DNA from: a virus
Taxonomy: Duplodnaviria > Caudoviricetes
Virus record (IMG/VR): IMGVR_UViG_3300034082_003278
Coordinates: 1,107 to 65,106 of that record
Direction: 5' to 3' (one strand)
DNA: 64,000 bases
Below, piece after piece: positions 57,343 to 58,456 of this stretch. The translations under genes were made by a program, and so were the position numbers. Position 1 is the stretch's first letter. The number at the start of each line of letters is the position of its first letter. The notes under the pieces were generated by a model. It was not told where the DNA came from, ran no database searches, and was given only the letters and a program-made list of their open reading frames with translations.

Positions 57343-58143
57343 ATGTCTACAAAAAAACTAACGCAGGACGAATTTGTCTCTAGGTGCCAAGAAATTTATA
57401 AAGATCGATATGATTATGCAAATACAGTCTACATCAATACAAGAAGTAATGTAGTTCTAACTTGCAATCTACACGGGGTCTTTAAAAGAAATGCTCGAAC
57501 ATTGTTATCAGGGTCCGGTTGCCAACAATGTAAAGATAATTGGTCTGATTACGTTTTGCGTCGAAGGATGACCAATAATGAGTTTATATCTAAAGCTGAA
57601 AAATTGCACAATAATTTTTATGCATACACCAAAACAAATTATGTCAACAGTCGATCTAGCGTAACAATAACTTGTCCTATACACGGTGATTTTGATCAAA
57701 ACGCAAGCGGCCACCTTGAAGGATATGGTTGTAGAAAATGTGGTGATAAGAAACACGGTGATTATAGACCCTGGTTCATAAACACTTATTTTGATAGATA
57801 CCCCGATAAAAAAGATATTCCTGCTACATTATATCTTTTATATAATTCTTCAGAAGATTTTTATAAAATTGGAATTACTACCAAATTAGATGTCAGAGAT
57901 CGTATAAAATACATTGCACATTATGATTTTGAAGTTGTTGACACTGTATGCGATACCATGTATAATATAGCATTAGCAGAACAAAAAATTCTGTCTACTG
58001 TAGAAAAATATAAACCTAAAAAAAGATTTGGAGGTTATACTGAATGTTTAAAAAGTTTTGTAGACATACACTTGTATGTCCCGCACAAGGACGGAATCCT
58101 AAACAAGGAGGCAAGGGCAGACAATGACATACGTCGTAACTGA
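57343..58143 (+). mobile_element. Free-standing homing-endonuclease-like gene (two Zn-ribbon DUF723-like repeats plus GIY-YIG/T5orf172-like domain)
   Basis: Repeats F......H...Y.Y....Y.N....V..TC..HG.F.......G.GC..C; LYLL......YKIGIT...R and GGYTE; AT-rich; own late promoter TAAATA at 57332-57337. Confidence 0.8.
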
Positions 58144-58456
58144 AAACTGTATTAAATGCAAGTATACCGACTGTGTTGATGTCTGCCCTTAGCTTGTAGA
58201 TTGTTTCAAGGAAGGTCCAAACTTCTTGATTATCGATCCTTCGGAATGTATCGACTGTGCTGTGTGTGTTCCCGAATGTCCAGCTGGCGCTATCTTTGCC
58301 GAAGAAGACTTGCCTGAAAACCAACGACATTTTTTGGCTATCAATGCCGAACTGTCCAAGACTTGGTCCATTATTACAAGAAAGAAAGAACCCTTGCCCG
58401 ATGCTGTTGAATGGGACGGTAAGCCCAACAAGATCGACCTATTAGATCGTGGTTGA
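58124..58456 (+). CDS. fdxA: 7Fe ferredoxin (FdxA) interrupted by a 6-nt insertion containing an in-frame TAG at 58190-58192 (recoded gene or pseudogene)
   Basis: [52 protein letters not shown]... Removing TAGCTT restores the canonical CPVDC. Confidence 0.9.

Follow-up and report, generated by a model that had tools for sequence, protein, structure and literature searches.

The question raised by this locus is why a phage ferredoxin gene should carry, always at the same position, a six-base in-frame insert that opens with a stop codon, and why the leader of that gene should be complementary to the coding sequence just before the insert. The stretch of DNA analysed, hereafter the window, comprises 64,000 nucleotides of IMG/VR record IMGVR_UViG_3300034082_003278 (positions 1,107 to 65,106). 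It is a fragment of a large phage genome (CheckV completeness estimate, 18%) and contains genes for ribonucleotide reductase, DNA ligase and tail fibres. The gene in question is fdxA; its ATG lies at 58124-58126 and the codons for the first 22 residues of a 7Fe ferredoxin (FdxA) are followed by TAG CTT. The explanation we favour, to which, taken as a whole, we assign a probability of about one half, is that a mobile homing-endonuclease cassette has replaced the start of the gene, that the six bases would keep the cassette from being cut by its own endonuclease, that ribosomes would hop over them, and that a helix between the leader and the take-off site would control initiation, assist the hop, or both. 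The parts of the gene are arranged as follows.

58105-58123, + strand: fdxA leader, with AAGGAGG at 58105-58111 and a further Shine-Dalgarno-like motif of the AGG type; the long-range helix has its 5′ arm here.
58124-58189, + strand: copy B, the cassette-borne replacement for fdxA codons 1-22; it ends GUC UGC CCU and includes the 3′ arm of the core helix (58180-58186).
58190-58195, + strand: six-base spacer TAG CTT, in frame at the Pro22/Val23 boundary of FdxA; the proposed immunity spacer and recoding site.
58196-58456, + strand: native 3′ part of fdxA, from Val-Asp-Cys-Phe onward, 86 codons plus stop (58454-58456), with Fer4 and DUF3470 domains.

The 3′ part matches DUF3470 (Pfam, E 6.9e-19), and the 86 residues past the spacer align with positions 23-103 of the 104 in NCBIfam profile NF045490 (FdxA_Protbact; 114.9 bits), position 23 falling on the residue that follows the spacer. 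The six bases are thus a clean in-frame insertion between Pro22 and Val23. Residues 1-22 are matched by Fer4 models and contain CxxCxxxxCxxxCP. Judged by its colinearity with the profile and the presence of the cluster-binding cysteines, the interrupted gene is that of the 7Fe ferredoxin FdxA. A split protein whose C-terminal piece had a start of its own is unlikely, as the next in-frame start (TTG, 58226) loses conserved residues. Elsewhere in the record TAG is an ordinary stop, found at 14 of 106 open reading frame (ORF) ends, and these admittedly crude statistics gave no sign of global TAG recoding. No suppressor tRNA was found in the 65-kilobase (kb) record or in 69 cassette loci totalling 480 kb, in which most genomes are only partly covered.

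A survey of related genes was used to establish how regular the interruption is. When viral fdxA loci were retrieved by their C-terminal part, 78 of 80 read CPVDCF without interruption and the remaining two (L001 and L015) carried a stop-Leu insert. Scanning viral contigs for a 6-nucleotide (nt) insert with an obligatory TAG returned 21 matches, 19 of them true fdxA; the same 19 fdxA matches, all beginning with TAG, were recovered when any six bases were permitted. The corresponding scan of metagenome contigs gave 49 loci, in which again all true matches begin with TAG. Combined, the viral and metagenome scans yielded 36 distinct fdxA alleles and one spurious match. In each of the 36, TAG directly follows Pro22 at the Cys-Pro / Val-Asp-Cys-Phe boundary; the second codon of the insert is CTT in 11, CTA in 10, CCA in 10, CTG in three and CCG in two. 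Conversion of TAG to a sense codon was seen in 0 of 36 alleles and nowhere in the any-6-nt scans of viruses and metagenomes. A variable-gap scan of viral contigs, limited to alleles with GTCTGCCCT, found no other insert length, its 20 matches with other gaps not being fdxA. Among cellular fdxA genes (185,579 prokaryote species, with a single representative genome each) the 6-nt insert had 0 matches, against at least 120 uninterrupted genes. A preliminary description of the locus, made from the letters of the window, had held that the insertion is not a random lesion; 36 distinct alleles, all with a 6-nt TAG+CYN at one site, bear this out. Among the reads examined (four DNA runs), the window allele was assembled with 0 differences across the spacer in three further lake-water DNA runs (records 10, 19 and 26). 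The same lake runs also contain uninterrupted fdxA from other organisms.

The coding sequence on either side of the insert is well preserved. Copy B retains its ATG, four cysteines and proline in 36 of 36 alleles, and its pooled synonymous and nonsynonymous diversities among 12 lineage representatives (pS 0.60, pN 0.15) give a pN/pS of 0.25. Downstream, every ORF that ends within its contig is intact, with 86-96 codons. The invariance of TAG beside a variable next codon, along with the lack of any sense-codon insert in viruses, metagenomes or cells, argues that the two extra codons are not meant for translation.

The second part of the question concerns the leader. As the preliminary description had noted, AAGGGCAGACA (58113-58123, just 5′ of the fdxA ATG) is the exact reverse complement of TGTCTGCCCTT (58180-58190), and A58191 of the stop codon is left unpaired in the window fold. 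The resulting rod is the minimum-energy structure of 58070-58230 in RNAfold (-51.5 kcal/mol, compared to -35.4 ± 3.9 kcal/mol for shuffled sequences; z -4.17, 0 of 200 as stable). Inverted repeats of this length, perfect over 11 nt and with 3-100 nt between the arms, are common in the window as a whole (12, versus 2.0 ± 1.9 in block shuffles, a six-fold excess), so the case for the helix rests on comparison with relatives.

This comparison was made with 34 distinct insertion-bearing alleles aligned from -40 to +90, and with a separate set of 29 sequences in which three helices were counted together. The conserved core pairs 58117-58123 with 58180-58186, the extension back to 58109 being specific to the window. 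All seven core pairs are kept in all 34 alleles, and three of the seven are compensated: two positions switch from G-C to A-U, with TGC/TGT and GTC/GTT changes compensated in the leader, and a third switches from U-A to A-U. Inclusion of G58116:C58187 gives 96.2% of alignment cells paired in the 34 alleles, where slid partners give 31-43%; across the counts on 34 and 29 alleles the core is paired in 96-99.5% of cells, compared to 29-43% for controls slid by 1-3 columns, and its covariation score was attained in 0 of 500 shuffles. All 15 one-sided core changes give G-U on the sense strand. Since such changes are wobble-compatible on that strand only, the constraint acts on the mRNA and not on the DNA. 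The partner of the core is native sequence, codons 19-21 (N GUC UGC), and every lineage has the leader paired with codons 19-22. Pairing in the conserved register ends on its 3′ side at C58186 or C58187, on the border of the CCU codon; leader pairing begins 6-7 nt before the CCN codon in 34 of 34 minimum-energy folds. The helix is also retained where the endonuclease gene described below is a stub without a start codon. The compensatory changes and the uniformly sense-strand wobbles indicate that the helix is very probably a selected RNA structure, as had been proposed. The corollary that uninterrupted alleles should lack a complementary leader holds for ordinary ones (mean duplex energy, -9.1 kcal/mol in 59 uninterrupted alleles versus -20.7 in 11 interrupted ones) but not for L151 or the displaced upstream copy of L124, which have the helix and no insert. 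The latter two look like recombination products within the cassette lineage.

Beyond the core, the pairing originally drawn for the window proved less general. AGGC (58109-12) can indeed pair with GCTT (58192-95), the inserted bases, by way of two G-U pairs, but the register is window-specific; together with AAACAA/TTGTTT (58101-06 with 58201-06) it is paired in 52% of cells, no better than controls, and neither is conserved. TCCT/AGGA (58097-100 with 58209-12) and GGAC/GTCC (58089-92 with 58215-18) compete with a covarying hairpin (hp2, below). Other lineages use different registers to pair the insert with the 3′ portion of the GGAGG region, UAGC with GCUA being frequent, and there the A of UAG is paired and not bulged. 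Among the 34 minimum-energy folds, leader pairing extends into the CYN codon in 30 and involves at least 2 nt of UAG in 22.

Examination of the sequences upstream provides a setting for the helix, which by the architecture of these loci belongs to a mobile homing-endonuclease cassette lodged in phage fdxA. The cassette extends from about 57308 to 58195 and comprises an endonuclease gene with a promoter, two covarying hairpins, the GGAGG leader, the copy of fdxA codons 1-22 and the 6-nt UAG-CYN spacer. Its parts upstream of the fdxA leader are listed here.

57308-57334, + strand: degenerate fdxA 5′ relic of 27 nt (Asn-Cys-Val-Lys-Val-Cys-Pro-Ala-stop), the left edge of the cassette.
57343-58143, + strand: homing endonuclease gene, 266 amino acids from the ATG at 57343 (start in the ORF list, GTG 57322).
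57938-57966, + strand: sigma-70 consensus promoter TTGACA-17-TATAAT (12 of 12 positions), inside the endonuclease ORF and 186 nt upstream of the fdxA ATG.
58063-58080, + strand: hairpin hp1, GACAUAC and GUAUGUC with loop ACUU, within the last endonuclease codons.
58088-58100, + strand: hairpin hp2, AGGA (58088-91) and UCCU (58097-100) with loop CGGAA, 4 pairs.

The endonuclease ORF stops 17 nt inside fdxA in the window and at -20, -10 or +17 relative to the fdxA ATG across alleles. Its product has two DUF723-type zinc-finger repeats with invariant Cys/His columns (Pfam PF05265, 21.9 bits; cut-off 20.9) and a T5orf172-like C-terminal domain (PF10544, 18.1 bits, below the cut-off of 20). It matches PHROG 681, “endonuclease”, with E 2e-39, and a LYLLY..FYK(I/V)GITTK-type motif is kept in 11 of 11 homologues. 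A model of the protein (predicted local distance difference test, pLDDT, 80.3) retrieved nothing at E 0.001 or better with Foldseek, and a sequence search of solved structures gave nothing meaningful (best E 0.66). Fold comparison of residues ~150-257 placed Slx1, HIGLE, the N-terminal domain of UvrC and the catalytic domain of I-TevI among the 13 best matches, at weak scores (Z 3.4-4.2), and so agrees weakly with a predicted GIY-YIG fold. An intact endonuclease gene is present in 11 distinct loci, 61-66% identical to that of the window; in the other loci examined it is reduced to the last 38-58 codons or is not detectable at all. A syntenic relative, L087, lacks exactly the 711 nt corresponding to 57318-58028 of the window. 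The endonuclease gene is thus linked to the interrupted gene and polymorphic for presence and absence. Deletion end-points cluster at codons 216-235 of the 273-codon ORF (counted from GTG 57322), just downstream of the promoter.

Of 39 distinct upstream regions, 12 have the promoter motif at -185 to -187; to judge by inspection, these are all the regions that retain that part of the gene, L106 excepted. The selfish gene seems, therefore, to carry a promoter for the gene that it interrupts. The motif is encoded by the endonuclease residues Val-Asp-Thr ... Met-Tyr-Asn. Hairpin hp1 (7 pairs) is paired in 94.2% of cells with 2 pairs changed on both sides (29 sequences), and hp2 in 93% with 3 such pairs; core, hp1 and hp2 together have 8 pairs changed on both sides and 96% of cells paired. 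Both hairpins are retained in the stubs left after endonuclease deletion.

Loci with an intact endonuclease contain a second copy of fdxA codons 1-22, located ~840-890 nt upstream of the cassette ATG and preceding the endonuclease gene. This copy has a different, native-type leader and a stop right after Cys-Pro. Its position argues that the element inserted inside fdxA at Cys-Pro|Val, bringing its own replacement 5′ end. The native copy of codons 1-22 is present in L091, L108, L124 and L132 and decayed in L015 (through an internal deletion), L113, L138, L098, L102, L084 and L085, remnants of 21, 9 or 6-7 codons being left in L113, L138, L098, L084 and L085; decay of the displaced copy by deletion has thus occurred in at least seven lineages. 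In the window, the relic directly follows the stop codon of the upstream gene (57305-57307). The same left end, AACTGCGT..TGTCCN GCATAAATA, recurs in L015, L091, L108, L124 and L132. In L124 the displaced copy has a cassette-type leader and no spacer, which fits re-invasion of an allele that had lost its spacer; L151 is a cassette allele with leader and helix and without the spacer. A degenerate piece (AAC TGC GTT TTT GTT TGT CCG GCA TAA) lies between the full displaced copy and the endonuclease gene in L091, L108 and L124, ~830-890 nt before the cassette ATG. Its presence hints at successive, nested invasions in which fragments of old targets were dragged along.

The pattern of divergence bears on how the cassette spreads. 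From about -183 to +57 around the spacer, alleles are 91-100% identical, in flanks that are 58-81% identical; an island of this kind is what conversion tracts around a break leave behind. In the endonuclease-less L096 clade, copy B has zero synonymous differences, while the synonymous divergence (dS) downstream ranges from 0.16 to above 1 (saturation). Downstream ratios of nonsynonymous to synonymous divergence (dN/dS) are low, 0.04-0.16. A near-identical 5′ tract joined to saturated 3′ parts points to recent spread by gene conversion, and for this reason we do not take the low downstream dN/dS as proof of function. A DNA search of phage GenBank entries returned weak ferredoxin matches only and no cassette, and searches of the literature, subscription journals being mostly outside their reach, turned up neither an interrupted phage ferredoxin gene nor the cassette. 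Within the literature searched, the cassette is previously undescribed and represents a strong candidate for natural stop-hopping.

We propose that the endonuclease would cut uninterrupted fdxA at the sequence encoding Cys-Pro|Val-Asp-Cys-Phe. This target would be restored if the replacement 5′ end were joined to the native 3′ part with nothing in between, so that a spacer would be needed for immunity, the 6 nt preventing self-cleavage. The spacer-less displaced copy of L124, the spacer-less L151 allele and the identity island around the spacer fit this logic, and we regard the cassette and the immunity role of its spacer as probable. Two extra residues beside a cluster-binding cysteine would probably be harmful, which would account for a spacer that opens with a stop and escapes normal decoding. 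With Pro-tRNA on CCU in the P site and a slowly decoded UAG in the A site, the peptidyl-tRNA would un-pair and re-pair 6 nt further on at CYN. Nine nucleotides (CCU UAG CYN) would thereby specify one proline and the product would be wild-type FdxA. Termination is slow after a P-site proline, and tRNA-Pro is slippery. The take-off codon is CCT or CCG among the 36 alleles, and the CYN pattern of the landing codon, with an invariant C, a pyrimidine in second place and any base in third, is compatible with re-pairing of a Pro anticodon. That the stop is passed by hopping is an attractive possibility to which we give slightly less than even chances. In two cassette loci a tRNA-Pro(UGG) gene lies within a few kb of fdxA (L095:1697-1774 and L116:11105-11181); this tRNA would read both CCU and CCA, and its presence may be a coincidence, phage tRNA clusters being common.

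As for the helix, it buries Shine-Dalgarno-like motifs and the start codon and must, as a consequence, restrain initiation; by sequestering the ribosome-binding site it would both limit and space the entry of ribosomes. In alleles with an intact endonuclease gene, ribosomes finishing the endonuclease ORF would open it. The translational switch coupled to that ORF, envisaged in the preliminary description, is thus possible in such alleles but is not the whole story, the helix being kept beside start-less stubs. The 3′ arm ends at the take-off codon and would re-zip with the leader only as this stretch leaves the ribosome. Approximate ribosome geometry places re-formation of the helix after a forward shift of ~6 nt; re-zipping would favour such a shift and lock it. 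By analogy with the 5′ stem-loop of T4 gene 60, the helix might help recoding directly rather than only gate initiation, a suggestion we make tentatively. Equally tentative is the broadest form of the proposal, namely that fdxA harbours the first natural, selected in-frame stop-hop, aided by an mRNA “zipper” between leader and take-off site, in a self-contained cassette that replaces promoter, leader and 22 codons.

Several points weigh against this scheme. A helix of such stability (~-20 kcal/mol) that covers the ribosome-binding site ought to reduce initiation strongly, which is awkward for a gene that needs to be expressed. The helix cannot exist while a ribosome occupies the take-off codon, and its direct role in hopping leans on an approximate ribosome geometry. 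Only CCA and CCG (12 of 36 alleles) are full matches as landing codons; the other 24 have CTT, CTA or CTG, Leu codons that pair with the Pro anticodon only through a G-U in the middle position. Unstimulated stop-hops have an efficiency of ~1%. They are described as “low-level” in the available portions of two preprints (10.1101/2022.08.31.505936, 10.1101/2024.12.09.627546). L151 keeps the helix without the spacer. Much of the low downstream dN/dS may date from before the insertion, and an intact ORF is no proof that the gene works today; recombination with native copies may renew copy B. Finally, G004, the record of L101, which bears the cassette and a divergent L081-type fdxA, has a DUF3470 match at C1:24647-24763, in a 112-amino-acid open frame that looks like a possible second, uninterrupted fdxA-like gene.

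The stop could also be overcome by plain readthrough: a near-cognate or suppressor tRNA would read UAG, CYN would be decoded normally, FdxA would have two residues added after Pro22, and the helix would regulate initiation only. In its favour are the in-frame position of the spacer, the slow termination that follows a proline in the P site, which would promote this outcome as well, and the mismatch of CUN landing codons with the Pro anticodon in 24 of 36 alleles. Yet if the readthrough product were the useful one, a TAG-to-sense change would raise output, and such a change is seen neither in the 36 alleles nor in any of the any-6-nt scans. The alternation of Pro and Leu at the second codon makes an odd pair beside a cluster ligand, the tally of 0 against at least 120 holds in cells, and the suppressor tRNA is missing from the record and from the 480 kb of cassette loci; we thus view readthrough as rather unlikely. 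It is also conceivable that fdxA is inactivated, that selfish drive outpaces the cost and that intact frames reflect recent invasion, in which case the helix would either serve the endonuclease gene (stability of its 3′ end, coupling or repression of downstream translation) or hitch-hike. The near-identity island in diverged flanks, the zero synonymous changes in copy B of the L096 clade, the quick decay of the endonuclease gene and the second fdxA-like frame of G004 are all consistent with such a state of affairs; the MobA-element preprint, in the part available, raises a comparable parasitic balance of deletion versus spread (10.1101/2022.08.31.505936, 10.1101/2024.12.09.627546). The cassette is old, however, as seen from endonucleases 61-66% identical to that of the window and from helices with compensatory changes. 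Copy B is intact in 36 of 36 alleles (pN/pS 0.25) while the displaced native copy decays in at least seven lineages, TAG never drifts to another codon, and the helix is kept in lineages without the endonuclease gene. Furthermore, if the cassette could do without FdxA, it would have no use for a promoter, a leader with a Shine-Dalgarno sequence and a new 5′ coding end. Loss of fdxA function seems unlikely to us.

The inverted repeat could, alternatively, act in DNA, as an operator or second binding site of the endonuclease, a cruciform or a recombination signal. What is presumed to be the left half of the target does recur in the leader in inverted form, and I-TevI, which binds an operator resembling its homing site, offers a precedent for autorepression in the available text of a review (PMC10448857). 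The 15 of 15 one-sided core changes that make G-U on the sense strand would, however, be mismatches in DNA and in antisense RNA; G-U pairs between leader GG and spacer CU argue likewise, and the repeat persists in loci that have lost the endonuclease gene. A role in DNA is accordingly very improbable. The preliminary description had itself proposed, besides the translational switch, RNA editing of the UAG (A to I, as at the amber/W site of hepatitis delta virus, HDV) or excision or processing of the insert, with the leader as antisense guide. The site does lie in a double-stranded rod, in which the A of UAG is, in the window, the only unpaired base. At an HDV-type site this A would occupy a conserved, specific position within the duplex, either unpaired or mismatched; here the bulge is confined to the window lineage, and most lineages pair UAG with the leader (at least 2 nt in 22 of 34 folds). 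The conserved core pairs native Val-Cys-Pro codons, not the insert. Positions 57300-58700 gave 0 Rfam matches at E up to 1, a result that excludes self-splicing introns or ribozymes of described families only. To our knowledge, bacteria have no double-strand-specific adenosine deaminases, and we know of no machinery for excising 6 nt of RNA. An editing or processing guide is thus the least credible of these explanations. Splicing in the manner of a group I intron, which would join the upstream copy to the 3′ part, was rejected as a general solution, the upstream copy being absent in the window and truncated in many lineages.

In the window, fdxA lies in a run of iron/redox or translation-related auxiliary genes (58124-60546), with the following neighbours.

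59090-59449: WYL_2 protein.
59442-59660: putative IF-1-like ORF, identified by reading its sequence alone.
59669-60223: Fe/Mn superoxide dismutase.
60220-60546: IscA/ErpA-type Fe-S assembly protein.

A near-consensus promoter, TTGACC-17-TATAAT with TG (11 of 12 positions), lies at 58453-58481, directly past the fdxA stop, and precedes a 125-amino-acid ORF (58512-58889) that has no Pfam match. Within the 3′ part of fdxA, the conserved Glu-Gly-Pro-Asn-Phe-Leu codons form a hairpin, CAAGGAAG...CUUCUUG (58207-58228), that begins 11 nt past the proposed landing codon. In T4 gene 60 a 3′ stem-loop is located 14 nt past the landing site, according to the accessible parts of the preprints (10.1101/2022.08.31.505936, 10.1101/2024.12.09.627546). 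Three of four uninterrupted alleles (L006, L013 and L002) fold with a local hairpin comparable to 58207-58228, and the one in the window may thus be incidental.

Programmed bypassing has essentially one well-studied bacterial example, T4 gene 60. If our proposal is correct, fdxA would be a second, independent case linked to an endonuclease, and a spacer skipped at translation would be a recurrent answer to self-cleavage; it would stand out by a gap of a mere 6 nt, an endonuclease of another family and dozens of naturally occurring variants. Being small (~140 nt between leader and landing site) and available in many variants, the system lends itself to studies of how peptidyl-tRNA re-pairing cooperates with mRNA structure behind the ribosome. 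Standard annotation pipelines would call such ferredoxin genes pseudogenes or split ORFs. Even if fdxA were dead, a cassette with a replacement gene start would represent an unusual architecture for a homing element.

Judged by function, the nearest analogue is T4 mobA/gene 60, of which the fdxA cassette is a counterpart and not a member. The T4 endonuclease belongs to the MobA family, whereas the one described here is T5orf172/GIY-YIG-like, with Pfam matches to DUF723 and T5orf172. As far as the available descriptions of the T4 system go, both have an endonuclease gene linked to a short stop-containing insert in a highly conserved phage coding stretch, both have mRNA structures around the take-off site, and in both the stop is immediately 3′ of the last sense codon (in fdxA, 36 of 36 alleles). 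In the parts of the preprints available (10.1101/2022.08.31.505936, 10.1101/2024.12.09.627546), the T4 insert is proposed to block self-cleavage, the endonuclease being progressively lost and the insert kept; mRNA pairing at the ribosome exit is proposed as a forward driver; and the gene 60 5′ stem-loop needs ribosome spacing in order to fold. The role suggested for the fdxA helix would resemble that proposed for this stem-loop. The two systems differ in target (fdxA here, a topoisomerase there) and in the length of the gap, 6 nt in fdxA, where bypass itself is predicted, and 50 nt in gene 60. Unlike gene 60, the fdxA site lacks an A-site stem-loop and an evident nascent-peptide signal; it has instead a long-range helix between leader and take-off site, with arms 56 nt apart, that also buries the ribosome-binding site. 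Moreover, the fdxA cassette brings promoter, leader and 5′ coding end, whereas the T4 element splits its gene with added tails.

Synthetic stop-hops in Escherichia coli have matched codons flanking the stop, so that 9 nt encode one amino acid, and natural in-frame stop-hopping was not known according to the available part of a 2016 review (PMC5009743). The configuration CCU UAG CCA/CCG of 12 of 36 fdxA alleles is of the same kind, a slow A-site stop standing beside a re-pairable P-site tRNA (PMC5009743, same part). The synthetic hops are artificial and, as described there, low-level, whereas fdxA has near-matched CUN landings in 24 of 36 alleles and a conserved helix. The endonuclease resembles the phage T5orf172 enzymes of ICP1 and others in its C-terminal T5orf172 domain and zinc-finger repeats of the CapR/DUF723/DUF4397 kind; in the available text on these enzymes, a GIY-YIG subfamily, they sit at boundaries of genetic exchange (PMC10448857). 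They are free-standing between host genes, and none is described in that text with a replacement gene end or a stop spacer (PMC10448857). Like MobE in nrdA of phage Aeh1, in what was available on that system, the cassette places an endonuclease gene inside a conserved metabolic gene, together with a device for preserving the function of that gene; in Aeh1 the halves are separate proteins that assemble, whereas in fdxA the 5′ part is duplicated and there is one frame but for the 6-nt spacer. Sequestration of a ribosome-binding site is familiar from the coat and replicase genes of RNA phages and from the mobE hairpin, where initiation needs upstream translation or breathing of the structure. The Shine-Dalgarno region and AUG of fdxA are similarly buried in a stable helix, but here the partner strand is the proposed recoding site of the very same ORF, and it covaries with the leader.

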